A DNA stretch of 62,600 nucleotides, the filler included, from Squatina squatina (taxonomy: Eukaryota): assembly GCA_031763465.1 (NCBI GenBank). It is 4 parts of 3 records of this genome, joined end to end, with 100 filler letters (N's around TTAATTAATTAA, not from the genome) between each part and the next. Parts side by side here need not be neighbours in the genome. Positions count along the whole stretch, not along the records: positions 48,049 to 62,600 come from JARFOE010000004.1; 3 more parts are not named here. The stretch is one strand, 5' to 3'. The notes beneath the pieces were generated by a model. That model ran no database searches and was not told where the DNA came from. It saw nothing but the letters and a program-made list of their open reading frames with translations. Every line of letters begins with the position of its first letter. Position 1 is the stretch's first letter. A program made the position numbers and the translations under genes. Below are positions 1,269-62,264 of this stretch, in pieces.

Positions 1269-1834
1269 CTCTATTGCACTTATTTAATTGATTTGCTTTT
1301 TTTTAATGTACCTGTGTATATCTACCCCAACTAATTTTTTTTAAGGTTTTGGTGTCCCTCTGATTTTTCCAGGTCATTGATTTGCCCAGCTTTTGATCAG
1401 TGGAGGGCAATGAATCGAGAACTAGCAATAACTAGTTCAAAAGAACATCTGATGTTTGCAAAGTGACGTTTTTTGTTTAATTGGATGTGATGTAAAATTG
1501 TGTGTTTCCTGCAAGCTAAGTTCAAAATGTAATTACTTCAAGTGAACTTGTACATAAGTTAGTTTCCTTTGTGAGTTACACTCTTCCTGTAATGCAACAA
1601 ATGAACACACAACCGAAATAAAGTTTATGATCATCTTTTATTCAGTATTCATTTATATACAATCAATTATCAAGCACATTCTTAAACCCAAGGTGAAAAG
1701 TCACATTTACGACAATTCATTNNNNNNNNNNNNNNNNNNNNNNNNNNNNNNNNNNNNNNNNNNNNNNNNNNNNNNNNNNNNNNNNNNNNNNNNNNNNNNN
1801 NNNNNNNNNNNNNNNNNNNNNGGGGATCCGGCGG

Positions 1835-4800
1835 GTGGGAGTGGGAGTGGAGTGGAGCAGGAGTGGATTCGGAGTGTGGGAGTGGAGTGGAGTGGATTCG
1901 GAGTGTGGGAGTGGAGTGGAGTGGATTCGGAGTCTGGGAGTGGGAGTGCAGTCGTTTCGGAATGTGGAAGTGGAGTGGAAGTGGATTCGGAGTGTGGGAG
2001 TGGGAGAGGAGTGGAGTGGGAGTGGAGTGGATTCGGAGAGTGGGAGTGGAGTGGATTCGGAGTGTGAGAGTGGGAGCGGAGTGGATTGGGAGTGGAGTGG
2101 ATTCGGAGTGTGGGTGAAAGTGGCGTGGATTCAGAGTGGTGGAGTGTGAGTGGAAGTGGATTTGGAGTGTGGGAGCGGGAGTGGTGTGGAATAGAGTGGG
2201 AGTGGATTTGGAGTGTGGGAGTTGGAGTGGAGTGGATTTGGAGTGTGGGAGTGGAGTGGAGTGGGAGTGGAGTGGATTCGGAGCGTGGGAGTGGAAGAGG
2301 AGTGGATTCGGTGTGTGGGAGTGGGAGCAGAGTGGATTCGGAGTGTGGGAGTGGGAGTGGAGTGGAGTGGGAGTGGAGTGTATTCGGAGTGTGGTTGGGA
2401 GTGGAATGGATTTGGAGTGTGGGAGTGGAAGTGGAGTGGATTCGGAGTGTGTGAGTGGGAGAGGAGTGGATTTGGAGTATGGGAGTGGAGTGGAGTGGAT
2501 TCGGATCGTGGGAGTGTAGCAGAGTGGATTCGGAGTGTGGGAGTGAAAGAGGAGTGGATTCGGAGTGTGGGAGTGGAAGAGGAATGGATTCGGAGTGTGG
2601 GAGTGGGAGTGGAGTGGATTTGGAGTGTGGGAGTGGAAGTGGAGTGGATTTGGAGTGTGTGAGTGGGAGAGGAGTGCATTTGGAGTATGGGAGTGGAGTG
2701 GAGTGGATTTGGATTGTGGGAGTGTAGCAGAGTGGATTCGGAGTGTGGGAGTGAAAGAGGAGTGGATTCGGAGAGTGGGAGTGAGAGTGGAGTGGATTCT
2801 GAGTGTGGGATTGGATTCGGAGTGTCGGTTTGGGAATAAAGTGGAGTGGAAGTGGCACTGGAGTGTATTTGGAGTGTGGGAGTGGAGTGGAGTGGATTCA
2901 GAGTGTGGGAGTGGAAGTGGGAGTGGATTTGGAGGATTGGAGTGGGAGTGGAGTGGATTCGGAGTGTGGGAGTGTGTGTGGAATGGGTTCGGAGTGTGAG
3001 AGCGGGAGTGGAGTGGAGTCAGAGTGTGGGAGTGGAGTGGAGTGGGTTCGGAGTGTGGGAGTGGAGTGGAAGTGGAGTCAGAGTGTGGGAGTGGAGTGGA
3101 GTGGAGTCAGAGTGTGGGAGTGGAGTGGTTTCGGAGTGTGGGAGTGGAGTGGAAGTGGATTCGGAGTGTGGGAGTGGGAGTAGAGTGGATTCGGAGTGTG
3201 GGAGTGGGAGTGGAGTGGTATCGGTGGTGTGGCAGCGTGAGTGGATTCCGAGAGTGGGACTGGGAGTGGAGTGGAGTGGGAGTGGATTCGGAGTGTGGGA
3301 GTGGGAGTGGAGTGGATTCGGAGTGTGGGAGTGGGAGTGGAGTGGATTCGGAGTGNNNNNNNNNNNNNNNNNNNNNNNNNNNNNNNNNNNNNNNNNNNNN
3401 NNNNNNNNNNNNNNNNNNNNNNNNNNNNNNNNNNNNNNNNNNNNNNNNNNNNNNNTGGGAGTTGATTTGGAGTGTTGGAGTTGGAGTGGAGTGGATTTCG
3501 AGTGTGAGAGTGGGAGTGGAGTGGATTCGGAGTGTGAGAGTGGGAGTGGTGTAGTGTGGGAGTTGATTTGGAGTGTTGGAGTTGGAGTGGAGTGGATTTC
3601 GAGTGTGAGAGTGGGAGTGGAGTGGATTCGGAGCGTGGGAGTGGGAGTGGAGTGGATTCAGAGTGGTGGAGTGTGAATGGGAGTGGATTTGGAGTGTGGG
3701 AGCGGGGGTGGAGTGGAATAGAGTGGGAGTGGATTTGGAGTGTTGGAGTTGGAGTGGAGTGGATTCGGATCGTGGGAGTGGAAGAGGAGTGGATTCGGTG
3801 TGTGCGAGTGGGAGCAGAGTGGATTCGGAGTGTTGGAGTGGATTCAGAATGTACGAGTGGAGTGGATATGGCGGGTGGGAGTGGGAGTGGAGTGGATTCG
3901 GAGTGTGGGAGTGGGTGTGGAGTGGAGTGGGAGTGGATTTGGAGTGTGGGAGTGGAGTGGAGTGGATTCGGAGTGTGGGAGTGGAGTGGAAGTGAATTCG
4001 GAGTGTGGTAGTGGGATTGGGAGTAGATTTGGAGTGTGGGTGTGGGAGTGGAGTTGTGTGGGAGTGGAGTGGATTCGGAGCGTGGGAGTGGGAGTGGAGT
4101 GGATTCGGAGTGTGGGAGTGGAAGTGGAATGGATTTTGAGTGTGGGAGTGGAAGTGGAGTGCCGAAGTGGGAGTGGAGTGGATTCAGAGTGTGGGAGTGG
4201 GAGTGGAGTGGATTCGGAGTGTGGGAGTAGAGTGGAGTGGATTCAGATTATGGGAGTGGGAGTGGAGTGGATACGGAGTGTGAGAGTGGGAGTGGAGTGG
4301 ACTTGGAGTGTGGGAGTAGATTCTGAGTGTGGGAGTGGATTCGGAGTGTGGGAGTGGAGTGGATTGTAATGGGAGTGGATTTGGAGTGTGGCAGTGGGAA
4401 TGGAGTGGATTCGGAGTGTGGGAGTTTGAGTGGAGTGGGCGTGGAGTGGATTCGGCGTGAGGGAGTGGGGGTGGTGTGGATTTGGAGTGTGGGAGTGGGA
4501 GTGGAGTGGATTTGGAGTGTGGGAGTGGAAGTGAATTGTAGTGGGAGTGGATTCGGAGTGTGGGAGTGGGAATGGAGTGGAGTGGGAGTGGGAGTGGATT
4601 CGGAGTCTGGGAGTGGAGTGGATTGTATTGGGAGTGGATTTGGAGTGTGGCAGTGGGAATGGAGTGGATTCGGAGTGTGGGAGATGGAGTGGAGTGGATT
4701 CGGAGTGAGGGAGTGGGAGTGGAGTGGATTCGGAGTATGGGAGTGGGAGTGGAGTGGATTCAGAGTGGTGGAGTGTGAATGGGAGTGGATTCGGAGTATG

Positions 4801-6235
4801 GGAGTGGGAGTGGAGTGGATTCAGAGTGGTGGAGTGTGAATGGGAGTGGATTTGGAGTGTGGGAGTGGATTCGGAGTGTGGGAGTGGGAGTGGAGTGGAT
4901 TTCGAGTGTGGGAGTGGAAGTGGAGTGGATTCGGAGTGTGGGAGCGGGAGTGGATTCGGAGTGTGGGAGTGGGAGTGGAGTGGATTCGGAGTGTGAGAGT
5001 AGGAGTGGAGTGCATTTGGAGTGTGGGAGTGGAGTGGAGTAGATTTGGAGTGTGGGAGTGGAGGGGAGTGGATTTGGGTTGGTGGAGTGGGAGTGGGAGT
5101 GGATTCGGAGTATGGGAGTGGAGTGGATTGTATTGGGAGTGGATTCGGAGTGTGGGAGTGGGAATGGAGTGGCTTCGGTGTGTGGAAGAGGGAGTGGAAT
5201 GGAGTGGGAGTGGAGTGGATTCGGAGTGAGGGAGTGGGAGTGGAGTGGAAGAGTGGGAGTGGATTTCGAGTGTGGGAGTGGGAGTGGAGTGAATTTGGAT
5301 TGTGGCAGATGGAGTGGAGTGGATTCGGAGCATGGGAGTGGAAGAGGAGTGGATTCGGAGTGTGGGAGTGGGAGTGGAGTGGATTCGGAGTGTGGGAGTG
5401 GGAGTGGAGTGGATTCGGAGTGTGGGAGTGGATTTGGAGTAGGAAGGGAATGGAGTGGATCGGAGTTTGGGAGTGGGAGTGGGAGTGGATTCGGAGGGTG
5501 GGTGTGGGGTGGATTCGGAGTGTGGGTGTGGGAGGGGAGTGGGAGTGGATTCGGAGTGTGGGAGTGGAGTGGATTCGGAGTCTGGGAGTGGGAGTGTAGT
5601 CGTTTTGGCGTGTGGGAGTGGAGTGGAAGTGGATTTGGAGTGTGGGAGTGGGAGTGCCGAAGTGGGAGTGGGGTGGATTCGGAGTGTGGGCGTGGGAGTG
5701 GATTCGGAGTGTGGGAGTGGGAGTGGAGTGGATTCAGAGTGTGGGAGTGGAGTGGAGTGGATTCAGAGTGTGGGAGTGGAGTGGAGTGGATTCGGAGTAT
5801 GGGAGTGGAAGTGGGAGTGGAGTGGATTCAGAGTGTGAGAGTGGGAGTGGAGTGGATTCGGAGTGTGGGAGTGGAGTGGATTGTAATGGGAGTGGAGTCA
5901 GAGTGTGGGATTGGGAATGGAGTGGATTCGGAGTGTGGGAGTTTGACTGGAGTGGGCGTGGAGTGGATTCGGCGTGAGGGAGTGGGGGTGGTGTGGATTT
6001 GGAGTGTGGGAATGGGCGTGGAGTGGATTTGGAGTGTGGGAGTGGAAGTGAATTGTAGTGGCAGTGGATTTGGAGTGTGGGAGTGGGAATGGAGTGGAGT
6101 CGGAGTGTGGGACTGGGGGTGGAGTGGAGTGGGAGTGAGAGTGGATTCGGAGTCTGGAAGTGGAGTGGATTGTATTGGGAGTGGATTTGGAGTGTGGCAG
6201 TGGGAATGGAGTGGATTCGGAGTGTGGGAGATGGA
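1835..6235. repeat. G-rich pentamer-based satellite/minisatellite, (GGAGT)n with recurring GGATTCGGAGTGTGGGAGT units
   Basis: Directly visible degenerate tandem array across two contigs (gap 3356-3455), with internal higher-order duplications (e.g. ~4330-4690 resembles ~5860-6235). Confidence 0.95.
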
Positions 6236-9559: not shown

Positions 9560-9888
9560 AGGAACACAGGAACAGGAGGAGGCCATTCAGCTCCTCAGCT
9601 CCTGTCCCACCATTCAATTGGGTCATGGCTGATCTGTATCTCAACTCCATTTACCTGCCTTGCTCCATAACCCTTAATACCCTTGCCTCACAAATCTCAG
9701 TTTTGACATTTTCAATTGATCCCCAGCCTCAACTGCTTTTTTTTGGGGGTGGGGGGAGAGTTCCAGATTTCCACTACATTTTGTGTGAAGAAGTGTTCCT
9801 GACACCACCCCTGAACAATCTAGCTCTCATTTTAAGGTTCCGCCCCCTTGTGCTGGACTCTCCCCACCCAGAGGAAATTGTTTCTCTT
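9560..9888 (-). mobile_element. CR1 (HER1-like) LINE 3' end
   Basis: Reverse complement resembles the CR1 tails at 37800-38102 and 62265-62600 (ATCAGCCATGA...GAATGGCCTCCTCCTGTTCCT). Confidence 0.75.
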
Positions 9889-14637: not shown

Positions 14638-15015
14638 TCATACATCAAGTACCATGTCATACTGCTGTTCCTTTCTCCGCCGACAGCATTTGGTGATGAG
14701 GACAATGTACAGAGTTAACAGCAAGACCCAGTAGCAGGCGTAGAGGATTGCCCCAATGATGAGAACTGTCTGCTCCGAATCGGAAAAGGGGTCGCGGGTT
14801 TCGTTGTATATGGTGTACATGACCCCTCCCAGAAGTATACTGAACCACACCGACACTGGGATCAGCCCAATGAAGTTCACCACAATGGTTTTTCTTCCCG
14901 ACGTCCCCCAGCCTGCTTTGTTTATGGTGGCGATTGCAAACATCTTGGCCGGCAGTAAACTCGACATGTACAGCACCGAGTACAGCGACATGAAAATCAT
15001 CACAATGTTGCCCCG
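14638..15015 (-). CDS. HAS2: Hyaluronan synthase 2, 3' part of last coding exon
   Basis: GNIVMIFMSLYSVLYMSSLLPAKMFAIATINKAGWGTSGRKTIVVNFIGLIPVSVWF...KEQQYDMVLDV*; the QQYDMVLDV terminus is diagnostic of HAS2. 5' end cut by a gap. Confidence 0.95.
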   Translation of the reverse strand, partial: RGNIVMIFMSLYSVLYMSSLLPAKMFAIATINKAGWGTSGRKTIVVNFIGLIPVSVWFSILLGGVMYTIYNETRDPFSDSEQTVLIIGAILYACYWVLLLTLYIVLITKCCRRRKEQQYDMVLDV

Positions 15016-15059: not shown

Positions 15060-15071
15060 TTAATTAATTAA
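15060..15071. other. Artificial scaffold linker TTAATTAATTAA (stops in all six frames) within N44 flanks
   Basis: The same 100-bp N44+12+N44 block occurs three times. Confidence 0.95.
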
Positions 15072-15306
15072 NNNNNNNNNNNNNNNNNNNNNNNNNNNNN
15101 NNNNNNNNNNNNNNNTTTTCTTATGTTCTCCAAACTCATGAATGTCTTATCTCATTGTTACACAATTCTCACTCTATTACCCGAAATATAACATATATAA
15201 GGAGAATAAGGCTAGACTATATGAGATAAGATAAGTAGGATAAATACTAAAATAATTTTACAGAAAAATGAAAAATGTCCAGATCCAATGAAAAAAGCTT
15301 TGTTAC

Positions 15307-15610
15307 CTGAGGCATACGATGTATGTTTAACAACCTTGCAACTGAAATGCTGATTTCTGAGTTAGCAGCTCCTATAACTGCCCTTACTATTGGCAAATAA
15401 TCTGTATAATTACACTGAACTTTAACACAGTTGTCTGAAGAGTTGGATTTAGAAAGGAACCTCAAGCTTGCTCTCAGTGCTATTGTTGGCTCCGTACAAG
15501 TGTCATGTAGTTCATATCCCAGTTTGATTCCAGGTAACAGAGTCGAATTGTTTACCATCTCTATGGAGTGGATCATGGCAAGCGCTTTTACAAAACCTCG
15601 CACGTCAAAC
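15307..15610 (-). CDS. GPRC6A: GPRC6A-like class C GPCR, Venus flytrap exon 2
   Basis: 304-bp exon with ttcAG acceptor and GTAACA donor. FDVRGFVKALAMIHSIEMVNNSTLLPGIKLGYELHDTCTE...VRAVIGAANSEISISVARLLNIHRMPQ; AMIHSIEMxNNSTLLPG and LRFLSK fit GPRC6A rather than CaSR/V2R. Orthologue versus paralogue is unresolved. Confidence 0.8.
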
Positions 15611-15780
15611 CTGAACATCAGAGAGTAACAGAAATAGAAATAAGAATGGTAAATTATAAACAGATGCATTGGATGTACAGNNNNNNNNNNNNNNNNNNNN
15701 NNNNNNNNNNNNNNNNNNNNNNNNNNNNNNNNNNNNNNNNNNNNNNNNNNNNNNNNNNNNNNNNNNNNNNNNNNNNNNNN

Positions 15781-16260: not shown

Positions 16261-16409
16261 AACGTCTGTTTCAGGACCCTTTCCTTCAAGTGATCATGGC
16301 TGAGCAACAATCAAACCACCATAAGTATTTTCAAACCTGTTAATTGTTCACTACTTAATCTTGTAAGTATCAACCTTAGTGTTGGACCAATCTACATGCA
16401 GATACTGAC

Positions 16410-16535
16410 TTTCATCACACTCGATCTGTTTCAGGCATTCCATCTGGGAGTTACTGTGCTCCAGGTACTCGCCTTCCTCACAAGGTTTGCAGTCAACGGG
16501 TTGGTCCGCAGTGCAGGGGGCAGAGAGATAGAAGC
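16410..16535 (-). CDS. TNF receptor superfamily cysteine-rich-domain exon (CD40/RANK type)
   Basis: 126-bp phase 1-1 exon (ttttAG ... GTCAGT): GFYLSAPCTADQPVDCKPCEEGEYLEHSNSQMECLKQIECDE with C-x7-C-x2-C-x14-C-x5-CD spacing. Confidence 0.8.
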
Positions 16536-17484
16536 CTAAAACACAATACACAGCGTTAGCATCAGCACAATTCTTCCGATGCTGGCACACTTCACTAGTC
16601 GCGATTTACTGCGTATCGTTCTGGTCACCACAGTATAGGAAGGATGTGAGTGCACTGGAGAGGGTACAGAGGCGAGATACCAGGATGTTGCCTGGANNNN
16701 NNNNNNNNNNNNNNNNNNNNNNNNNNNNNNNNNNNNNNNNNNNNNNNNNNNNNNNNNNNNNNNNNNNNNNNNNNNNNNNNNNNNNNNNNNNNNNNNGGGA
16801 TCAGTGCAAAATATCTCTCACCTTGATGAGCCCAGCAAGGAAAAATTGATTATAATCCATATTTATAAAATTAGGCTAATTATCCAAAAAGGTATCGCAT
16901 GGGCTGCCTATTTTGCACTCTGCCCAATATTCCATTCCTTTGAGGTCAGATGGAACTGACATGGGCAGGGCATAGAACAGGAAGCCCATGTAATACCGGC
17001 CAAGGTGAATTTTTACCTCACTCTATGCTAATCACTTAAAATTGAAAGGATGAATTTATTTGAAGTTTTAATGTCAGTTTCGGTCAGGGCCAGTAATTCA
17101 CGTGTAAGCGTGTATGTGCTTTTCTCCCCCTTAATTTGGTGAAGTAGAAATCCTCTCTCTGTTTCCTCTTCATCAAGACCATATATCGCAACCCTATCAA
17201 AAAGGCAAACACAGCTTTGCCAATGGCACCCTATAATTGGCTAACAAGATGTGCAGCCCTGGGTTGACTGATCCTCTGTGTCCCCTCCTCTTCACCTATC
17301 CTGGGCAACTGAAATCAGGGCTTCACCACCTATGGACTTCAACAGTGCACACAAATCCATATATTATCTCTCCCAGAGGCAGCACTACACCTCTATGCTT
17401 CCCGTAAGAAGCAGGTATGTTTGAGTTATTGTTGCTTAGTTACAGACAAGTAACAATTCACTTAATCTATGTGTATTGCCAAGA

Positions 17485-18525: not shown

Positions 18526-21500
18526 GTAAATTAAAAAAAAATCTAATTAATGGGGAGTGAAGCCCTTTCTTTGGGACGTTCTGGGGTTGTGATAAGACAC
18601 TATGGCCGAGAATTTTCTCAGAGCTGTTCTCGTTTCACCAGCATAACGTTGCCGAGTGGTGATACTGAGCAGAAGTGGAAACTTACTGGTATGGGAGCAT
18701 ACTATGTTCAGCAGCAAGTTGACAGTAAAGTTTCCATACAATACAAAAATTGAAGTAAGGTGCTTTAGCAATCCGGACTGCATTGTATTAAATTCCGTAG
18801 GGGCTTAACACACATACATAATACACGTTAGTCCTGGAACTTCAGGGTTGCTTACAGTGCGAGCAAAAAATACAAGTGCAGATGGTGTTATATTTTTGTT
18901 GTCTGCTTGCTGTTTCCTTGTCTCTGGGGATACATCTTCTGAGAGTTTATGTTATTATCCACTATAGTTTCCTTTGTTTTCATTGCCATTTTGCCCGCCT
19001 CCCATCTTGAGTTTGAGACTTCAATCCAACATTCCAGATGAAGAAGGTGAAGATGTCACTTCCTTTTTCTTCTCAGATGTGCTTACTCNNNNNNNNNNNN
19101 NNNNNNNNNNNNNNNNNNNNNNNNNNNNNNNNNNNNNNNNNNNNNNNNNNNNNNNNNNNNNNNNNNNNNNNNNNNNNNNNNNNNNNNNNNNNNNNNNNNN
19201 NNNNNNNNNNNNNNNNNNNNNNNNNNNNNNNNNNNNNNNNNNNNNNNNNNNNNNNNNNNNNNNNNNNNNNNNNNNNNNNNNNNNNNNNNNNNNNNNNNNN
19301 NNNNNNNNNNNNNNNNNNNNNNNNNNNNNNNNNNNNNNNNNNNNNNNNNNNNNNNNNNNNNNNNNNNNNNNNNNNNNNNNNNNNNNNNNNNNNNNNNNNN
19401 NNNNNNNNNNNNNNNNNNNNNNNNNNNNNNNNNNNNNNNNNNNNNNNNNNNNNNNNNNNNNNNNNNNNNNNCAGCTTTGGGCAGAAAAGAGTTCATCTGG
19501 AAGGAGGTGTCTAGCTACAGTGAGTAGGTCCCTTCTCAATATCTTTTGCCTTGTGTGATTTTAAGCAGAAAATTGGCATAGATATTTGAAGCTGCAACTG
19601 CAGCCGATGATTCAAGAACTGCTGTGCTGAAGGAGCCTCCAGATTACAACATTAAACTGAGGTAAGATCCTTAAGTGAATCTGGTAAAACAAACATAGAT
19701 TTGTCATACTCTAATCGGAATGAAAACAAAATGTATTAGAGCAACAAAAGAGTTAAATAAAGTCGGGCTTGGCTTGCCGTTTCTCTTTTCAGTGCATAAA
19801 CCAGCTGTAGCTCAATTAGACTAAATTGCCTTTCTCCCTAGCCACACACACACTGATTCAATTAAAGTGCATTTATACTACCACCATCATATTGGTGCGT
19901 GCATGGTTGGATTAACACAGTCATAAAGTTATAAGTCAAAATCCTGTTTTGTGCTGGAATGAACATAGAAAATGTTCACTGGTGCAAGTGTTCAGGTACA
20001 CTGGTACACTGCCATTCTTTCTAGTTAAGTCATAAAGATGTTGAAATTCCCAACTTTGCCAATTTTAACAAAAAAAGTAGGTTAGAATCCAAAAGTGGTG
20101 GATTGCGGGTAGAAAGGATTAGCAAGCTATTTTTCCATGTTTAGTGCCATTTCTAGTATTTTCAATCCTTCAAATATGTATTACTAAAGGTCAGCATGCA
20201 GTGAGAGAATGAAAAAACCTTTGCTTATCGAGGTTATGTTAAGGTTATTAATGAGAAGCTTTTGTAGTATTTCACTGATGCACAATCAAAACAAAAATTA
20301 TTTTACTCCAGTAATTGGTACTAGTGGGCTTAACAAACTGGAGAGTTTAAAGTATCACTGCAGCGGTGTCAGAAATGAATAGTACACGGGGATTTTTCTC
20401 AGGAGATATGGGTGTAGCAACCATCAGTGGATAAATCACAGTAGAGCACAAGGAGGAGGAGAGTGTGATTTGGGAGCGCAGAGGGCATAGGAGGTGAGCA
20501 ATTCACAGTAGATGCTAATCCAGGCAGCTAATATATCTGAAAAGAGCCAGCTATCTGAGCATCATGGNNNNNNNNNNNNNNNNNNNNNNNNNNNNNNNNN
20601 NNNNNNNNNNNNNNNNNNNNNNNNNNNNNNNNNNNNNNNNNNNNNNNNNNNNNNNNNNNNNNNNNNNNNNNNNTCCACATCAATACATTACAACATTACA
20701 TTAATATAGAGGAATCTTTCAGGAAATGTTACAGGAATCAACCACTTTGTTTGCCTTTCGTGCAACTGGTAATTTCTTTATTGCCCAGTAAAAGAATGAC
20801 AGGCCGCAAGGTGTAGTAAAAATGAATTAATTTTATTCAGTTGTCCAATGGTAACAGTCTATGAGGTTAATGTTCTTTGCTGAAGCATTTGTCTCTTGTG
20901 TGCTTAAATCTCTCTATGTTGGCTGTGCATGGATCTGACTACTACAAGCTTCTATGGTTAATGGAGTAGCAATGGTAGGATCCTTTACATACAACTGGTG
21001 TGCTGGTGGAGATACAAAACCGATGTGTTGCAGGGGATACAAAAGACTCACAACCTGAACCTGCAACTAACCCTGGAGCATCTGCATCAGTAGTGAAAAT
21101 CTTCTTTGCTTGAATTGCTGTGGGCTCATTGTTTTCAGAATTGGCACCTGTTGTGACTTCTGCAGGGCTACAAGGTGGCACAAAACTGACATGAATGCCA
21201 ACTTGCTGCTCCAGTGCTACGTTCTGCAGGCTACTGCTGCAAGGCATCTCTTCCAATTGCCCACTAACCTGTCCAAGCATAGAACAGGGGCACCTTGGAA
21301 TTCCTGCCCTCATTGTTGCCTTCATCTGATCTCAAGTGAGTTGAAGCCAGCTATGACTACATCTTAGAGTTTGAACTCCAGAGCCTCCATAGCAACATTT
21401 ATGAGCGATGCTCCTTCTGTGATTATGGTCTATTTACTGAAGATTTCACTGATATTGCTGCCCCATCATCATCAATGCTTAGTGCCTACCATGTGATTCC

Positions 21501-26100: not shown

Positions 26101-27728
26101 TTCCAGAGCAACATAAAAATGTCAAGAAGTTTCAGATTAGTCTTTTATATGTAGAAAGAATTTTAATCTTTGGTTTGTGGTTACTTGCTCATATATCGCA
26201 TGACCTTTGCTTTAACCAAACCATGCTGAATTCCACATTGTACTAACTCCTTCATACACTGTTCCTTTGTGTCTTGTTAGTGCCAAACACAGCCAAGTAC
26301 AAGTACTCTACAAGAAATAGCATTATACTTTATGAAGTTGAGGCTTGGAGTCTCACCATTCTCTAGAAACCACAAATATGGCAATAAAACAAACTTAGCA
26401 AAACTTGAAGAGAAAGCCCAAGTTAAGTGGTAGCATGAACTTTGCAACTGGCAAACAGTTCATTTGAAATATAGAACATATCTACAGGATTCTTGATTCT
26501 ATGACCCTAAGAATGTGGATCCCAGGATTCTACCATGGATCTTATACAAGATCTATAATAAAGCATGAATGACTAGATTAGCTGGTGGCTTATGTGTTGG
26601 TTATGGAAAGGGAAGTATTCAATTACATTACTGAGAGCTTGAACANNNNNNNNNNNNNNNNNNNNNNNNNNNNNNNNNNNNNNNNNNNNNNNNNNNNNNN
26701 NNNNNNNNNNNNNNNNNNNNNNNNNNNNNNNNNNNNNNNNNNNNNACTTAGATGTAGAAGTTAATGAACCACAAGTGCTACTTTAACACTCCAGCAGAAG
26801 TCTATAAATATTCACCCTACAGGCACTGTAATGCTGCTTAAACTGCAATATCGTGTGCACACACACATTATAAGTACTTTAATAATTCATTCTCTAATAT
26901 TACATTTCTTGGAGTTTTAATGTGCTGTCAAGGAAATTTATTTTGTCAATTACACCTAACTGACTCCATTGAATTGTTTAGCTCAACTAATCAGGTAAAC
27001 CAACTTGCAGTTTAATTCCTATAAATACCTGCATTGTACTTTTATGGAGCACATTTGCACAGCACATTAACAGCCTCCCACAATGCTGTGGTTCATGTGT
27101 TGGTGGTGCAGCTGCTGAGCCCATGCTGTAATGATTAAAGCTGTGTACTTATGTTCATTCCAGCAGTGTTGTGCACTGACATTTTGCCCATCCTCTGTAT
27201 TACAAGTCTGCTGTGGGCAAATAGCTCTACTTCTTTTATTTTCCCCTGCTCTCTGTGTCTCTTACCTCCCAACCAATACCGATCCATGTCACAAGCTTAC
27301 CTCCAATCCTGTGCGGTTTCATTTTTGCTAATAATCTATTGTGCTAGTGATGTCCTCAAATAATTCAATGAGACCACAAATCCACGCTGACTCTGTTTCA
27401 CTAGCTCATACTAGCCCAAATGCTCAGTCATTCTGTCTCCAATGAAAGATTCCAGTAGCTCCCCCACAACTGATGTTAAACCGATGGTCTATAGTTACTT
27501 ACTTTCTCCCTTCCTTCCGTTCATTCTAAAATAATGGAATGACATTTACAGTTTTCCAATCCAAAGGCACAATTCCTGAATCTAGAGAGCTTTGGAAAAT
27601 TATGTCTAATGCAACTGCAGTTTCCTTGCCTATTTCTTTTAATACTGTGGGGTGGAAACCGTAAGGTTCTGAAGATTTATTTATCTTGGTTGGATGTTAA
27701 TCAGTTTGTTAATACATGTTTTCATTAG

Positions 27729-27920
27729 GAGAAATTGAACCTATCATAAGACTGGTGAATGGCTCAGGCCCCCATGAAGGCAGGGTAGAGGTTTTCTATG
27801 AAAAGTTATGGGGAACAGTGTGCGATGATAAATGGGACAAGCAGGATGGAGAAGTGGTCTGCAGGATGCTCGGTTATAAAGAAGCTTCTGAAACTCATAC
27901 GGCAAATAAATTTGGACAAG
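27729..27920 (+). CDS. SCARA5: Scavenger receptor class A member 5-like, first SRCR exon
   Basis: 192-bp phase 1-1 exon (ttttcattAG ... GTAATA): EIEPIIRLVNGSGPHEGRVEVFYEKLWGTVCDDKWDKQDGEVVCRMLGYKEASETHTANKFGQG. IRLVNGSGPHEGRVEV and WDKxDGxVVCRMLG match SCARA5. Confidence 0.85.
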
Positions 27921-29776
27921 GTAATATTTTATTTTTCTTGAAATGAAAATGTAAATGAATGCTTGGTTTTCTGTTTTCATCAACCACATTTTCTGCTGGA
28001 TGAAGAACAGCAAATTTCTATTTAAATCTATAGACTTAAAAAAGATTTGAGGGAGAAATTCCCGTGCCTTTATAACTTAAAAATTACACAATCTGAGTGG
28101 GGGGTGAAATTTGGGGTGGAACTCAGCTCGGTCTCTGCCCCTTTTTCTGGCCCAATGAGGTAATCTTACAGTAGGGGGCACTGGCACTTCTCGATCCTAC
28201 CCCCACCCCCACAATGCCAGCGTCAGAGGAGGAGATGGGACAACCCCTCCGGCAAGCTCTCAGTTGCCTCTAAATGGCGTGGCTGCCTGTCCAAAATATG
28301 TTTATTGATTGACCATGGGATTTTGGACAGCAGGTGGAAGTCCTGGCCTGCCACACTTCATTGTTGATTTGTAGTCAAAATTATATTTCATATATTTTCT
28401 GTTGAGAATGAAGTGGCCCTTGTTTCATTGCTTTGGCTTTGGACACGACAGCCTGCATGGGTTAAACATTAGTGGTATTGCACCATGGTTAACATACATT
28501 GGAACCAACTCCTATAAAGCACATGATCACAGCAGCCTAGTCACCAATAAACTGCGTGAGAGTTTGTATTGTACAAGTATAATACAATATTTAATTTCTT
28601 CTTAAAAAATATATTTTTAGAATCTTATGTTGACTTATATATTGATGGAGTTGTATATTTTTTCTAATATATACTTGCAGGAGCATATTTTACTATGAAC
28701 CTATGGCATTTTTTTTTAATACTCTTACATTAATACATGAATGTTTCAAGATCAGTGCTTTTGTTAGTGGCCACAAGGATAATGATACCCTCGGCAGGAT
28801 CAATCAGGGACTATCCTTTTTTGTCTCGCAGTGCAGTTAGGTTGGCTTTCCAGGTTTGTGGTCCCTGACGAGCATGTAAGGTACCCTTGGCTTCCTCTCT
28901 GGTTAGGTTACTTCTCCCTCACAAGAGTGTGCTGTGGTTTTTATGGGCGGAAATCTTATATTATTATTCTTCAGGAACGGGGCCAGACCTCTAGTTAGGT
29001 TTTCAGTCTTAGAAAGAGCCACAACATAACTTATTCCAACTGGCACATATTATATCGACTAGATGAGCTCCCATGGCATTGCACACGGTAAGTCAGAGAA
29101 TTTGATATTTTTCTTATTGCCTCCACTGTCTTTAAGTTACTGCTTCTCTCTCTGTCATCTCCTCTTCCTCTTTTGCTTCTGACTCTCTCCTCTTCTGTTT
29201 TTCTTCCTTTAACTCTTTCTTTGCTTCTCTCTGTCTTTTCTTCTTGCCTTTTAAGTAGGTGGCGGTGGTTAGCATAACATAGTGTGCATGAAAAGAAGGC
29301 ACTGATGACTACAGACTGCAGTGTCTAGTGGTGGTTGGAAGTTAATTGTGGCTTGCAGCCTTTCTGCAACCTCCTTCCCATTCCCTACCCCTATCACTCA
29401 TGCTTCCTCTCATCCGCTCACTCCCTCTTCGTATTCTTACCATCCCCTCACTTTCCTATTCCCCATCACTCCGAGCACTATTTCTATTTCCATTCGTCTT
29501 GGCTGACCTCCTTCACTTTGAACTATCTGCCAGACCCATATATTCTACCCTCACCCACACTCTACTGTCACTCACACTCTTCACTTGCCCCTCTCTTCCA
29601 CCTGATCCCCTCAGGGACAGGTATTAAGAGACAAGAGGCCCCCTCACCCTTCCTGTTTCCTTCCTTCTTTTACACGCCTGTTCTCCCCACGCCCCCACAT
29701 CTATTTCTCTCAAAGAAGATTTGTTTGATTACAAAATTCAAATTAGTTTTTTTTAAATAAACACAAATTAAGATTA

Positions 29777-29889: not shown

Positions 29890-29901
29890 TTAATTAATTA
29901 A
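29890..29901. other. Artificial scaffold linker TTAATTAATTAA
   Basis: Same N44-12-N44 structure. Confidence 0.95.
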
Positions 29902-47992: not shown

Positions 47993-48004
47993 TTAATTAA
48001 TTAA
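47993..48004. other. Artificial scaffold linker TTAATTAATTAA
   Basis: Same N44-12-N44 structure. Confidence 0.95.
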
Positions 48005-54099: not shown

Positions 54100-55251
54100 T
54101 ATGGAGAGGTGCACGGAGGGCGATGTGCTTGCAATCATTTGCACCCTGCACCCTGGGGAACCTGGCTATATTGGCGAACCCCAGGGCTTACTATTGCTAT
54201 AAAGGCTATAAAGGTATGATATGCACTGCCTTCTTTTTCTGTAGAGTAATTTGGTGACCTGTCTAATGGAGCAATGGACTGCATAATGGAAGATGTTGGA
54301 GATGTCACTGGTAGCACCTTGAAATGATCCATTCGCGTAAAAGTTCAGTGCTACTGTTACTTTCACGGCCACAGAAAGAGCTGTGAAAGCCCTGCTCTGT
54401 GGCTGCAGGTCAGCCTGAAGGCCTTGGCATAGTTCAGTGATGGCTTCCTTCCTGAAACGGAGTCTTCAAAAGCATTGCTCATCCGTCATCTGCAGGTAGC
54501 TGAACTGATGTCTGAAGACTCGGTGAGCATATCTCCTTCCTCGCCGACCCCTTGGAGGATGCTGTAAGGGTCTGGCCTGTGCCACCACTGGTTGAGCTGG
54601 CTCTGGCAAGTCAAGGGGTTGTTCGGTGTGGTCATGGTGCGGAGCTGGTGCTTCCTCCTCCCTACCCTCATTTTGCACGGGCGTCATCTCTCTCTGCTCC
54701 AAAAGGAGCCGACACCTCTCCCTGAGGTACCTCATGTGGTGTCGGCAGAGTTCCCAGTCCACCGCTAAAGCAGCAACCATGCCCGATTGGGAACGATCTG
54801 GTGAACAGTAAAATGCTCACCCAAAAGCAAAGTTATCTGTGGGAAACACAGCCCCTGGCTTGCAGACAATACCTCCAGTCCGATTGAACTGTCAGCAATG
54901 CAATTTCTGCAAGCAACATGGCGAACTCACCTACCCCTTTAAATAGTGCCAGAAATCATGGGAGGGAGTGTGTCACCACCTGAAAAAACGTTATTTCTTG
55001 AGGTTTGTAGCGCTACCGAATTGCTTGTGGGGTGGCCATTTTAGGTGTTGCGCTTCTTGATGATGTCATGGAGGCCATCCAACGCCCGACACCATGTTTC
55101 CAGTGCTCCGGGCACAGCGCCCATTTGGCACCGGCGCTGGTCTGATGCGATTTTGGCAGCGGAGCCCCTTAGTGCCCGAAACGGGTGTCACACCCCTAGC
55201 GCCTCTTTCACGCTCATTCTGTGCCTGCGCTAAAGGGCCAATTGGGCGCCC
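54100..55251 (-). mobile_element. Harbinger transposon with decayed HARBI1-like DDE transposase
   Basis: RVFRHQFSYLQMTDEQCF*RLRFRKEAITELC...LSVAVKVTVALNFYANGSFQ.../FPRVQGANDCKHIALRAP, with a stop and frameshifts; terminus GGGCGCCCAATT at 55251. Confidence 0.88.
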
Positions 55252-56156: not shown

Positions 56157-57088
56157 CTGATAAAAGAAAATATAAAGTACTGATTTTTACAATATTCTAA
56201 TCAAATACTTATCAAGCTTTTTTTTCGTAGAGTGTGTTAAAACAGCATTAACTGCCTTTATGAGTAGCCGAGCAGACTTACAAATTTTACTTGGGGGACC
56301 TGTTAATTTTATACTTGTGTAATTCTGTGCTAATATCAAAAATTATGGGGCCTGCTTGTATCGGCATCTCCATGCTTCTGAGCACTTTATAGACTTGGAT
56401 AATTTCTCTGCTCTCAATCTTCTTTTCTCCAATAATATCAATTCAGCTCTGTAAGCCACTCTTCATAACCTCAAGGCCAAAGTCACAGAATCATCCGGTC
56501 ACTCTTCTCTCAGCTCTCTCTATCATATTAATGGCCTTTTAAAACCTGGATGCCCAAAACTGTGTACATTACTTCAAAAATGGTCTTGCTATATGGTTTA
56601 ACTTGTTTGAACTCTTTATCAAATGCCTCAAGATGCACTCCCCTCACATAATTAGCCTTGCTAATAACAACTTCACAATAATTGGATGTATTCAGAAAAA
56701 TGGCTAATAATCAGCCAAGAGGAGGCCAGTTCTTCATATGGTATGTTCATCATGTACAACTCCTCCTCCCTATCCTATTTCATCATTTACAGCTTTAAAG
56801 TTTAAAGAGACATATTGGGCTGGTAATTCTGGAATTGGGAGTTCTCATNNNNNNNNNNNNNNNNNNNNNNNNNNNNNNNNNNNNNNNNNNNNNNNNNNNN
56901 NNNNNNNNNNNNNNNNNNNNNNNNNNNNNNNNNNNNNNNNNNNNNNNNAAGTCACAAAGGTCTTTAAAGTACTTAAGCTTGACAAAAATTTTTTTTTAAT
57001 TGATTCTGACAAAATGTGTATATAACACTATGTTTACAAACCCCACAGAAAAGCTGCATTAAAACCAATTTAACTACCAGTTGGCAAG

Positions 57089-57105
57089 TTTATTTCACTT
57101 TTATT
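57089..57105 (-). promoter_or_regulatory. Candidate distal poly(A) signals of SELENOI
   Basis: Two minus-strand AATAAA (57100-57105, 57089-57094) followed by U/GU-rich sequence (TTGGTTTT...TTTTCTGTGGGGTTTGT). Confidence 0.4.
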
Positions 57106-60100
57106 GTGTGCCTCACCAATAAAGTCATGGCCAAATTTCGTTTGCCGTCTAGTATTGAAGCTATACAATTGTTACTAATGCTGCAACTTGCAAATGTTTC
57201 ACTTTACAATGTCAAAATATTTTTAAGAATCTTTCAATTTAACAGAAGGGGTTGTCAGAATTTAAGATTTCCCCCAAGTGTTTCAATCATACTCCGTTTT
57301 GTAGAACCCCTCATCAAACAAGCCCTGTCCAAAAATATCCTGCATCTGCAAGCCATAATATTGTAATATTTTAGTTTTATGGAAAATTCATAACTTTGAG
57401 TACCTCTAATTTTTCTGAAATATTACTCATTTAAGGTGAAAACAGGTAAATTTTATCCCATGTTGTATCAATCACTAACAATTTATGATTAAAGGGAAAA
57501 ATTCACCAGGCAATTGATTGCAAATATACGTAATTTTTTTTAAATTGCCATCCGAGTTTTACATCTTAGCATATGCAAAATTGACTTTTCTTCTCGTACT
57601 CCCTTGTTTCCCAGTAAACCATTGTAAACTTGTGAAAATACATGGGAGGGAGAAGAGACAGAAAATGAGCAACCTCTAACATTCACAGCCTCAGAAAAAC
57701 ATCAGAGCAGAAAAATATTACTGAACACATATCTAATAGAGATAAAACTGTACATAAATATTCAGATTAAGTTACCTGTATGCATAAGAGGTTGAGCATT
57801 AACAATAATTGCATACCTTCACTGAATGTTTAACTGTAACCAGGCTTCTCTGAATTATACAGTGTGTAAATAATTAAACCAGTTAAACAATCATTCACAG
57901 ATTAAAAGTCAGTATTAAGTGAGCAGCAAAATGGTTTATTAACTATATTAATAAAATCTGGTTTCAAAGGATAGAAAACAGAAGACAGATCTTGATATAG
58001 TTGAATGCTAAATTACAGGTTTGCCAAAAACATTTCATGACCACTGTGCAAATTGAACTGAATAACAGTGCACTGGAATGTCATGCTTGAAAAGCACTTC
58101 AAAATCTAGTATACATCTGGCAAGGTTCAATATTATAGAAAGCCGAAAACATGGTGTGTGGAAATAATTTAGTTATCCGTCTGATTGTACAGGACCTCCG
58201 GTACTTTGGGTATATGGGAACAGCCACAATGCACCTTTGGAACCAAAAGCACAAAAGGCCACAATAGTTACTGAATCCACTTCATAATCACATATAAAGA
58301 GGTTTACAGATCTCAGTGCTAAATAAGTTAACTAATTGTGCTAAGAGAGTGATGTAAACAAAGCCAAAATTTGACCATCAGCCCTTTATACACAATATTT
58401 GAAGTTTTCCAGAAATTTTAGACTGCCACTGCTTCAAAAAAACTTACAACACGGTTATAGGGTGCTCTTTTTTTCTGCTATATCGTGCATGGTTTAAAAT
58501 AAAAAAGACCAAGGAAAATACTGCAGTCCTGCAAGAAATATCAAGTCCAAGGTGAAAATTGCACCCAATGAATTATCGCTTTTGGAAAAAAGCAAAAAGT
58601 CTAGTTTGTAGCGCATGGGAAAGTGTTCAATACTATCCTTATCTTCTATAAATAAATAAAAATCAGTTACATGAGTCACCCGTGAGTGCAACAATGTTCA
58701 CCATTTTCTCCACACAGCATCTGGTTAATATAACTTTTATTTAAAGCTTACAATTTAGGGGGAATATTGTGCTTTTGCAGGTTACTTCTGTGAATTTAAT
58801 ATAAAAATATAGCAAAATCCTGTGATACCTACAGGCACACAAGCTCTGGACATTTCATCCCTTACTCAATGTCAGAAAATTTGAGTGCAGAGTGCCAGAA
58901 AATAACCCATTTGCACCATCAGAACCTGCACATTCTCCAGTAATTTTTCATTTTTCAAGTCAGAAATTCATGTTACTGTACTTGTAATATCATGGATCAT
59001 ATCAAGTGTAATCTAAAATAGCCTTCTTACACACAAAATTCATTCATCTCAATAGGGCAGCAGTTCCATTTTTTTATTAACAGGGAGAATGGAAATTGTA
59101 TCCTGCATATTGTACAAAATAAGGGCTGGTTGAAAATGATTCACGGAACGTGCGCCTATAACAATTTCAAAACGATACACACATCAATGCTTCACGCCAA
59201 ACCATTAATCAATGTTCCACTTCCGGCAATGAAGATGCCAGATGGAGAGGAAAGTAAAAGGATTTGTACAGTTACATGACAGTAACATAATTGTAGCAAA
59301 CAAAAATGGATGTCCTTAAGAAATATTGCTGCAATTATGTAAACAGCAGTTGGTNNNNNNNNNNNNNNNNNNNNNNNNNNNNNNNNNNNNNNNNNNNNNN
59401 NNNNNNNNNNNNNNNNNNNNNNNNNNNNNNNNNNNNNNNNNNNNNNNNNNNNNNNNNNNNNNNNNNNNNNNNNNNNNNNNNNNNNNNNNNNNNNNNNNNN
59501 NNNNNNNNNNNNNNNNNNNNNNNNNNNNNNNNNNNNNNNNNNNNNNNNNNNNNNNNNNNNNNNNNNNNNNNNNNNNNNNNNNNNNNNNNNNNNNNNNNNN
59601 NNNNNNNNNNNNNNNNNNNNNNNNNNNNNNNNNNNNNNNNNNNNNNNNNNNNNNNNNNNNNNNNNNNNNNNNNNNNNNNNNNNNNNNNNNNNNNNNNNNN
59701 NNNNNNNNNNNNNNNNNNNNNNNNNNNNNNNNNNNNNNNNNNNNNNNNNNNNNNNNNNNNNNNNNNNNNNNNNNNNNNNNNNNNNNNNNNNNNNNNNNNN
59801 NNNNNNNNNNNNNNNNNNNNNNNNNNNNNNNNNNNNNNNNNNNNNNNNNNNNNNNNNNNNNNNNNNNNNNNNNNNNNNNNNNNNNNNNNNNNNNNNNNNN
59901 NNNNNNNNNNNNNNNNNNNNNNNNNNNNNNNNNNNNNNNNNNNNNNNNNNNNNNNNNNNNNNNNNNNNNNNNNNNNNNNNNNNNNNNNNNNNNNNNNNNN
60001 NNNNNNNNNNNNNNNNNNNNNNNNNNNNNNNNNNNNNNNNNNNNNNNNNNNNNNNNNNNNNNNNNNNNNNNNNNNNNNNNNNNGTGGTGTACAGCTGCAA

Positions 60101-60627
60101 CACAACTTCAAATTGTAAATTAAATTGGTGCACTAAGCAGTCTTGCGAGCATCTCATGGAAGATAATATAAATAAATTAACATATTTTAAATCTTTATGG
60201 TACACTAATTTGGATCAGTTGAATTCCTTTAAACTGAAATTGGAGCCAGTTCAAAATCGTTAACACAAATTAGTAAACAAAATATTAGAATTGGAACTGT
60301 TCTACTTGCCCAAACTATACTTTGAACAGAAGTTACACTGATGTAATATGAAAATGTTTTATTATAGCAAGCTTCACCAGTAAGAGATACCTCTATGGAA
60401 AAGAGACCATTGACTAAATTGTACTCAACATATAAGAAGGATCCATCAAATTATTTTAACAAAAATATGAATTCTTACACCACAAAGCAGGACTGTCTGA
60501 ACATTCCCCCTACTGTAGTGTAATTGCTAAAATGTGAAAATCTACACAATATATTCATTGCCTTTCCTAAAGAGAGTTTAGGTACAAAACCTCTGGTTGT
60601 GCACCTAAACTAAATACAATTACTGCT

Positions 60628-60697
60628 AATCATGCTTGTTCCTTCCAAGTATACCTTGCTCTAAGACTTTTAGTATACTCTTCATTCAAGCACAATC
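60628..60697 (-). promoter_or_regulatory. SECIS element in the SELENOI 3' UTR
   Basis: RNA: GAUUGUGCUUG-A-AUGAA-GAGUAUACU-AAAAGUCUUAGAGCAA-GGUAUACUU-GGAA-GGAA-CAAGCAUGAUU. It shows helix I, an AUGA/GA non-Watson-Crick core, a 9-bp helix II and unpaired apical As. Confidence 0.9.
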
Positions 60698-61368: not shown

Positions 61369-61768
61369 TAATGCTTTACAGGTAGGTCACCCCTAAATTG
61401 TCAGCAGCAGATGTAGGATGACTATTGCTCACTGTAATCTAAGTAAATATTTGTATCGATAGCTGACATTTTGGTCATCAAAAATATTATACCAAAATGT
61501 GTTTCTACTTACCACCTAATATTTGTGCTATGAGATTAAATAAATTAAATTGATTTCTATTCATTACGTGTGTAACAGAACTGTAAAAAATGAATGGCCA
61601 TTTTCCATTGTAGTGTTCCTGCTGTCCTGAAATGTTCCGTAGAAAATTAAATCTTTTGTAGAAANNNNNNNNNNNNNNNNNNNNNNNNNNNNNNNNNNNN
61701 NNNNNNNNNNNNNNNNNNNNNNNNNNNNNNNNNNNNNNNNNNNNNNNNNNNNNNNNNNNNNNNNTTCT

Positions 61769-61879
61769 TTACAATTCAGAAGCCTGCAAGCCAATTTTCT
61801 GTTCCTCCTCTAGTCATTCTGTATTCGGTTTCTTCAGGGAGAAGGCGTAAATGTTAAAATGTTTGCTCAGCTGATTCAC
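61769..61879 (-). CDS. SELENOI: Selenoprotein I / ethanolaminephosphotransferase 1, last coding exon with in-frame Sec UGA
   Basis: Acceptor ttttatcttaaaacAG; VNQLSKHFNIYAFSLKKPNTE-U(TGA 61816-61814)-LEEEQKIGLQASEL*(TAA). Aligns with recalled human [32 protein letters not shown]. Syntenic with DRC1 and OTOF. Confidence 0.92.
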
Positions 61880-62264
61880 CTGTTTTAAGATAAAATAAAA
61901 TTACTGTACTCCCAAGTTTAAAAAAAAAAGGATTTTTTTTTTTACTTCCCTGGAAAATGACACGTATCTAATTCATGTATCTATTTTCAATTCCAAGGCT
62001 TACTGGGTTATTTGTGGTATTTTTCTTTCATTGTGAACTGTTCTAAAACTACTTAGAGTTCTTTACCCATTCACCCTGAGTGAGCAATATATATTCTAAG
62101 CTCCAGAAATGAAACAATACTATGCTAACCCACCTATATAGCATCTATTCTAAAATTAACATAGAAATGCTGCAAACACACAGTTCAATCATTAGTGGTA
62201 AAGAAGTTTTGAGTGTTTACCCTTCAACAGAATTGCCTTTCAAAGCTACTGTGTCATGTACTGT

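Follow-up and report, generated by a model that had tools for sequence, protein, structure and literature searches.

Introduction

The tandem G-A pairs of a SECIS element are bound by SECISBP2, which together with eEFSec delivers Sec-tRNA to a UGA codon. The closest described counterparts of the element analyzed here are the SECIS elements of vertebrate SELENOI (SelI, EPT1, ethanolamine phosphotransferase) in turkey and human, a gene whose selenocysteine (Sec) lies near the C-terminus of the protein. The human SelI SECIS binds SBP2 (apparent Kd, 12.2 nM; PMC3328465, Table 1) and is not among the six weak SECIS elements named in PMC2761289, and 75Se-labelled SELENOI drops in SECISBP2-mutant cells (PMC9599142). 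The SelI SECISes published in PMC2647825 and PMC3328465 are all of type II. In the turkey EPT1 cDNA (JQ616821), the UGA is found at 578-580, the SECIS at 1839-1886 and the 3' end at 2339 (PMC4466519, Table 2). One survey, with the elephant shark among its species (PMC3316567, Table S1), found SelI in every vertebrate it examined and reports having found no Cys forms of it. According to a 2026 survey that included nine cartilaginous fishes, SelI originated at the vertebrate root, and no homologue spans the Sec position outside vertebrates (PMC13134290).

Here, we analyzed a stretch of 62,600 nucleotides from Squatina squatina, filler included (hereafter the window; 58,398 known bases). In this window, a minus-strand hairpin at 60697-60628 had been proposed as a SECIS element that completes a recoding cassette with a UGA about 1.1 kb upstream. 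Our analysis leads us to regard the hairpin, with high confidence, as the 3'UTR SECIS of Squatina squatina SELENOI. It adds one more case of a known element, in a gene already known as a selenoprotein in all vertebrates examined.

Anatomy and predicted fold of the hairpin

All coordinates originally given for the hairpin agree with the sequence, which has the following parts, listed from the whole element inwards:

60628..60697, minus strand: SECIS element, whole hairpin, with helix I, internal loop, core, helix II and apex
60687..60697, minus strand: helix I, 5' arm, pairing with 60638-60628 (pair probabilities 0.89-1.0 in context)
60628..60638, minus strand: helix I, 3' arm, in 11 consecutive pairs with 60697-60687
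60681..60685, minus strand: conserved A and 5' half of the quartet (UGAA; consensus UGAN/KGAW, PMC2647825)
60643..60646, minus strand: 3' half of the quartet (GGAA, which fits KGAW), opposite UGAA at 60684-60681
60672..60680, minus strand: helix II, 5' arm, 9/9 paired with 60655-60647 (probabilities 0.93-1.0)
60647..60655, minus strand: helix II, 3' arm, 9/9 paired with 60680-60672
60656..60671, minus strand: apical region of 16 nt with an unpaired A run at 60671-60668; a possible helix III of 2-3 bp is marginal

The core AUGAA (60685-60681) opposite GGAA (60646-60643), the nine pairs of helix II (60680-60672 with 60655-60647) and the 16-nt apical region starting with AAAA (60671-60656) had all been described correctly. 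Helix I is likewise present, but the ten pairs listed for it fall short of the 11 consecutive ones found, which include one more G-U. Thus, an 11-bp helix I accompanies the 9-bp helix II and the 16-nt apex, and neither helix has a broken pair (11/11 and 9/9). An extra A at 60686 lies between the 5' arm of helix I and the AUGAA core, and the 3' side of the internal loop is formed by a second GGAA (60642-60639).

Folded with ViennaRNA as an 86-nt sequence, the hairpin reached -19.4 kcal/mol, with both helices in the minimum free energy (MFE) and centroid structures; in a 301-nt context, the pairs of the helices had probabilities of 0.89-1.0. Pairs within the apex had probabilities of only 0.26-0.37, and a helix III would span 2-3 bp. 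The UGAA/GGAA quartet would be expected to form the non-canonical tandem G-A pairs of a SECIS. The minor consensus positions of PMC2647825, compared by eye, are also present, namely the unpaired A, a G that follows the quartet and faces a pyrimidine, and the pyrimidine at -4. The 5' arm of helix II contains an 8-nt palindrome (60679-60672, minus strand) and the 3' arm carries the same 6-nt core, so that each arm is self-complementary.

Compared with known elements, the apex is compact, measuring 43 nt from core to core, as against the 48-nt annotated span in turkey, the limits of which are undefined there. Helix III is marginal (probability at most 0.37), so that the hairpin could be of type I or of type II, the latter being the type of the SelI SECISes in PMC2647825 and PMC3328465. 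A likeness of the 5' arm to the mammalian SELENOI SECIS had also been suggested. A printed SELENOI SECIS sequence was not found in the full-text literature (the SelI alignments of PMC3316567 are images), and a search for the SELENOI SECIS motif gave no matches in the supplements of PMC3753652 (file 2), PMC12628022 and PMC13134290.

Pattern matches and chance level

Four SECISearch patterns have been published (PMC3753652, supplement S1), of which we re-implemented the strict, default and loose ones. The hairpin matched all three in this re-implementation, the strict one with an 11-nt spacer. An unpaired AA, sought 11-13 nt past the core, is provided by the A run at 60671-60668, and A60685 is unpaired. 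SECISearch3 filters for a stem 2 of 7-15, an apex of 8-30 and an energy below -4. With these limits applied by hand, the hairpin lay within all of them, having a stem 2 of 9, an apex of 16 and -18.2 kcal/mol. The hairpin shows only half of the predictor of weak SECIS elements in PMC2761289: the T three nucleotides before ATGA is present, and the +2 pair is G-U, not G-C.

To what extent could chance produce such a hairpin? The strict pattern alone is permissive: when the 1581-nt contig that carries the hairpin was shuffled with its dinucleotides preserved, 286 of 3000 shuffles matched, and 96 of the 3000 also passed lax energy limits. The folding energy by itself is modest as well (z -2.19; 7/200 shuffles equally stable). 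However, when the strict pattern was combined with the energies observed (upper stem -6.7 and whole hairpin -19.4 kcal/mol), only 8/3000 shuffles qualified. A tighter descriptor matched once in the window and in 0/2000 shuffles (3/2000 at medium stringency), figures that are biased since this descriptor was fitted after the element had been seen.

Across both strands of the window's known bases, the strict pattern matched seven times, and the hairpin at 60697-60628 was the sole match whose MFE fold has the two-helix SECIS shape. The six others (34705 and 47181 on the plus strand; 59043, 57430, 33631 and 19890 on the minus strand) were rejected, their MFE folds being without that shape. The match at 19890 has an energy similar to that of the SECIS hairpin, but not its shape.

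Rfam was less supportive. The original prediction had named the covariance model SECIS_1 (RF00031) as a check, and the outcome was divided: the alignment covered all 64 model positions in the correct orientation and placed AUGA, AA and GA in register, but the score of 17.3 bits is about half the gathering score of 35, which is a curation threshold and not a mechanistic feature. We accordingly do not present the hairpin as an Rfam-grade match. The E-value was 5.3 for the contig and 0.41 for 121 nt, no better than those of unrelated families at chance level. Relative to the model, the internal loop of the hairpin is short on its 5' side and the apical stem is weak, and the 3' core reads GGAA where the model consensus has UGAU. 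No Rfam family matched at its gathering score anywhere in the window; SECIS_1 and SECIS_5 surfaced only below the cut-off, under an E-value search. Overlapping snoRNA matches (snoMe18S-C1367 and snoU43) had chance-level scores like that of SECIS_1 and were rejected.

The hairpin thus has every SECIS feature of sequence and structure that was tested, the Rfam cut-off being the exception. By itself it is good, not conclusive, evidence, and its position makes the case. The low Rfam score and the permissiveness of the strict pattern would suit a chance look-alike in an AT-rich 3'UTR, with the functional SECIS lying farther downstream or in the DNA hidden by the gaps of 100 N and 729 N that border the contig. 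We consider this highly improbable, given how few shuffles attain the observed energies and given the complete pairing of both helices. Furthermore, the pattern matches downstream, at 59043 and 57430, do not fold as SECIS elements, and none of the six Rfam matches on the next contig (56949-59354) is to a SECIS family.

Does the hairpin belong to SELENOI?

Upstream of the hairpin, on the same strand, the window contains the last SELENOI exon. The features that bear on its relation to the hairpin are:

61769..61879, minus strand: coding part of the last SELENOI/EPT1 exon, comprising 21 residues, UGA, 14 residues and TAA
61814..61816, minus strand: in-frame UGA, the probable Sec codon, followed by CUAG at 61813-61810
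61665..61764, no strand: placeholder gap that separates the exon contig from the SECIS contig; its true size is not fixed by the 100 N
60358..60363, minus strand: first AATAAA past the stop, a candidate polyadenylation signal, 279 nt after the core

The exon is identical to the C-terminus of Hemitrygon akajei (stingray) EPT1 in 21/21 residues (tblastn, E 4e-8), and both matches of a protein search were named ethanolaminephosphotransferase 1 of Hemitrygon akajei. An acceptor AG ends at 61880, and the exon boundary was placed from the start of the protein match. No further SELENOI exon was found in the window, which stops 721 nt upstream of this exon. Within the last intron, a dispersed repeat occupies 62600-62322 (minus strand), with copies at 9568-9675 and 38095-37827; it is probably a shark SINE.

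A SECIS is expected in the 3'UTR of the same mRNA, more than 51-111 nt from the in-frame UGA. The hairpin lies on the strand of the UGA and at least 1016 known nucleotides away from it, but across the 100-N placeholder gap. The nominal distance is 1116 nt to the hairpin, 100 of them N, and 1128 nt (1028 known) to the core. The proposed spacing of about 1.1 kb, and the caution that it is nominal because the gap at 61665-61764 intervenes, are therefore both borne out. In turkey EPT1, the corresponding distance from UGA to SECIS is 1258 nt, as compared with the nominal 1128 nt in the window. In both cases, the SECIS follows the UGA at roughly 1.1-1.3 kb, and some hundreds of nucleotides farther on comes a candidate polyadenylation signal: the turkey 3' end lies 453 nt past the SECIS, and the first AATAAA of the window 279 nt past the core. 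No AATAAA or ATTAAA was found in the known sequence between the SELENOI stop and the SECIS. The turkey protein has 16 residues after Sec, and the window encodes 14.

The exon contig stops 4 nt past the TAA, and the SECIS contig (60084-61664) is flanked by gaps on both sides, of 100 N and 729 N. Between the two contigs, no end-to-end overlap of 4-39 nt was found. The window consists of 39 pieces with a median length of 1207 nt, and most of the joins are runs of exactly 100 N. We also observed that the 12-nt sequence TTAATTAATTAA occurs three times (15060-15071, 29890-29901 and 47993-48004), each time with 44 N on either side. This is the mark of an artificial concatenation linker, and the window is accordingly not a continuous stretch of chromosome. 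Since contigs are joined here as a patchwork, with unrelated neighbours elsewhere and kilobases possibly hidden in gaps, the adjacency of exon and hairpin across the 100 N is not direct evidence, and we infer their join from the turkey-like spacing and the wider neighbourhood.

Downstream of the SECIS, on the same strand, lies a single DRC1 exon (56161-55910, minus strand; residues 378-461 of 761), which is 96% identical to that of Heptranchias perlo; the best 19 of 73 matches are all from cartilaginous fishes. SELENOI and DRC1 are adjacent in human (PMC6978274), and human SELENOI thus shares this neighbour with the window. The order SELENOI, SECIS, DRC1 agrees with the human adjacency and indirectly supports the join. 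The interval from the SELENOI contigs to this exon contains no exons for DRC1 residues 1-377, and no other DRC1 exon was found in the window; with only one DRC1 exon in this block, the gaps there can hide many kilobases. Further indirect support comes from the two species that appear in both the EPT1 and the DRC1 list of records (Hemitrygon and Stegostoma): for each, the longest assembly piece has the same size in the two lists.

The contig between SECIS and DRC1, at 56949-59354 (minus strand), is AT-rich, carries AATAAA at 59078 and 58741, and is joined to the SECIS contig via the 729-N gap. It shows no repeat in common with the rest of the window and no second SECIS, and none of its six Rfam matches is to a SECIS family. 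It may represent the distal portion of an extended SELENOI 3'UTR.

These observations also bear on a contig misjoin, by which a genuine SECIS of another selenoprotein gene would have come to lie beside the SELENOI exon, whether its contig was placed there arbitrarily or guided by homology. The placeholder joins, the unrelated genes on adjacent contigs elsewhere and the lack of overlap between the exon and SECIS contigs give this explanation some room. Against it, a misjoin would have had to bring a SECIS by chance onto the strand of a Sec codon and to about 1.1 kb from it, with a spacing like that of turkey, and between SELENOI and DRC1, and the element so placed would be the only well-formed SECIS among the seven strict-pattern matches of the window. 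We therefore hold a misjoin to be very unlikely. Together, the last SELENOI exon with its in-frame UGA, the turkey-like spacing and the downstream DRC1 exon support the recoding cassette originally proposed, in which exon and hairpin would be carried on one transcript.

The in-frame UGA as a probable selenocysteine codon

The window's UGA is at the position of human Sec387 (PMC8540796 for the human residue). All 16 homologues retrieved, from sharks, a ray, frogs, paddlefish, a lizard, a crocodile and a turtle, stop one residue before it, and the two shark EPT1 records are 386 aa long. Protein records do not show the terminating codon, and records bearing U may escape the search tools. Moreover, an annotation that ends at the Sec codon is an error documented for RefSeq in families whose Sec is C-terminal, SELENOI included (PMC12822975). 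That the UGA is a true stop, with only an enzyme of about 386 residues being made and the hairpin a decaying relic, would accord with these 16/16 homologues and with the in vitro activity retained by the Sec-less human enzyme (PMC8540796), but is scarcely credible in view of that known annotation error, the possible invisibility of U-bearing records and a hairpin with no broken pair in either helix.

With the UGA read as a Sec codon and the hairpin as its SECIS, the mechanism proposed from general SECIS biology and by analogy with mammalian SELENOI would be as follows. In the mRNA, the UGAA/GGAA core would form tandem sheared G-A pairs, a kink-turn-like motif, and would be bound by SECISBP2. 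The latter would recruit eEFSec with Sec-tRNA to the UGA at 61816-61814, which would be read as selenocysteine, and 14 more codons would be translated, up to the TAA. Should recoding fail, the enzyme would end one residue before Sec. SBP2 binding and Sec insertion in Squatina SELENOI are thus presumed to proceed as in the human gene.

Structural databases offered no template for the tail. The 36-residue exon peptide gave one chance match in PDB (E 1.7), and for a shark EPT1 the only matches there were CEPT1/CHPT1 structures (5 sequences), with no solved SELENOI tail. Among the homologues, we observed a diverged EPT1-like group (P0016 and P0017; turtle and Xenopus) that ends where the Sec-truncated records end. 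The end codon of this group, UGA or another, could be informative about how the tail arose.

The UGA-CUAG context of the probable Sec codon

CUAG comes immediately after the probable Sec codon (61816-61810, minus strand). Mammalian SELENOI, we presume, also has Leu after Sec. The UGA-CUAG context drives SECIS-independent readthrough in the mammalian genes OPRL1, OPRK1, MAPK10 and AQP4 (PMC4132726) and is also treated in PMC5100048; UGA-CUA alone gives 1.5% readthrough (PMC4132726). In those four genes it is the stop-codon context that drives readthrough, and the inserted residue is called unimportant (PMC4132726). Unlike them, the SELENOI of the window has a SECIS, and its family keeps Sec, without Cys forms reported (PMC3316567).

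This context raises the speculative, and in our judgment rather unlikely, idea that the SELENOI UGA is decoded in two ways, through the SECIS and through CUAG readthrough, the tail having been born as a leaky stop that was later captured by a SECIS. The motif comprises four bases in one species and was noticed after the fact. The lack of Cys forms argues that Sec itself is selected. The sequence after the UGA forms no strong stem-loop (-5.7 kcal/mol over 49 nt), and none of the literature matches listed linked the CUAG motif with SELENOI, a weak negative judged by term counts or abstracts.

Other features of the window

Several contigs elsewhere in the window carry recognizable coding sequence. 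The last coding part of a hyaluronan synthase lies at 14641-15015 (minus strand; PDB match, E 3e-35). An exon for the ligand-binding domain of a class C receptor (ANF_receptor) is found at 15304-15678 (minus strand), an SRCR domain exon at 27713-27925 (plus strand), and a TNFR cysteine-rich repeat exon, which scores below the Pfam cut-off, at 16357-16605 (minus strand). All three exons are isolated, on neighbouring small contigs. Two open frames at 54169-54816 (minus strand) resemble a decayed transposase of Harbinger/PIF type and gave no Pfam match. Finally, a degenerate G-rich tandem repeat spans 1822-6235; its GC skew is close to 0.87, and both strands contain long open frames.

Discussion

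The identification of the hairpin as the SELENOI SECIS draws on its anatomy and fold and, above all, on its place between a SELENOI exon and DRC1. Counting against it are the SECIS_1 score of 17.3 bits, the fold z of -2.19, the marginal helix III and the patchwork assembly. If the identification is right, a plausible vertebrate SECIS can score far under the Rfam cut-off.

On this main reading, an elasmobranch SELENOI retains both its Sec codon and its SECIS. That in itself matters little, although it would correct the shark and ray EPT1 annotations that end at the UGA, a known database flaw. The role of the SELENOI Sec tail is described as an open question in PMC8540796 and PMC3316567, and the compact SECIS together with the UGA-CUAG context would suit a simple reporter test of selenium-independent tail synthesis. 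Were dual decoding true, scarce selenium would lead to insertion of a near-cognate residue, and the C-terminal tail would still be made. The vertebrate-only Sec tail of SELENOI would then represent a selenoprotein born from readthrough, and not from a Cys-to-Sec exchange.
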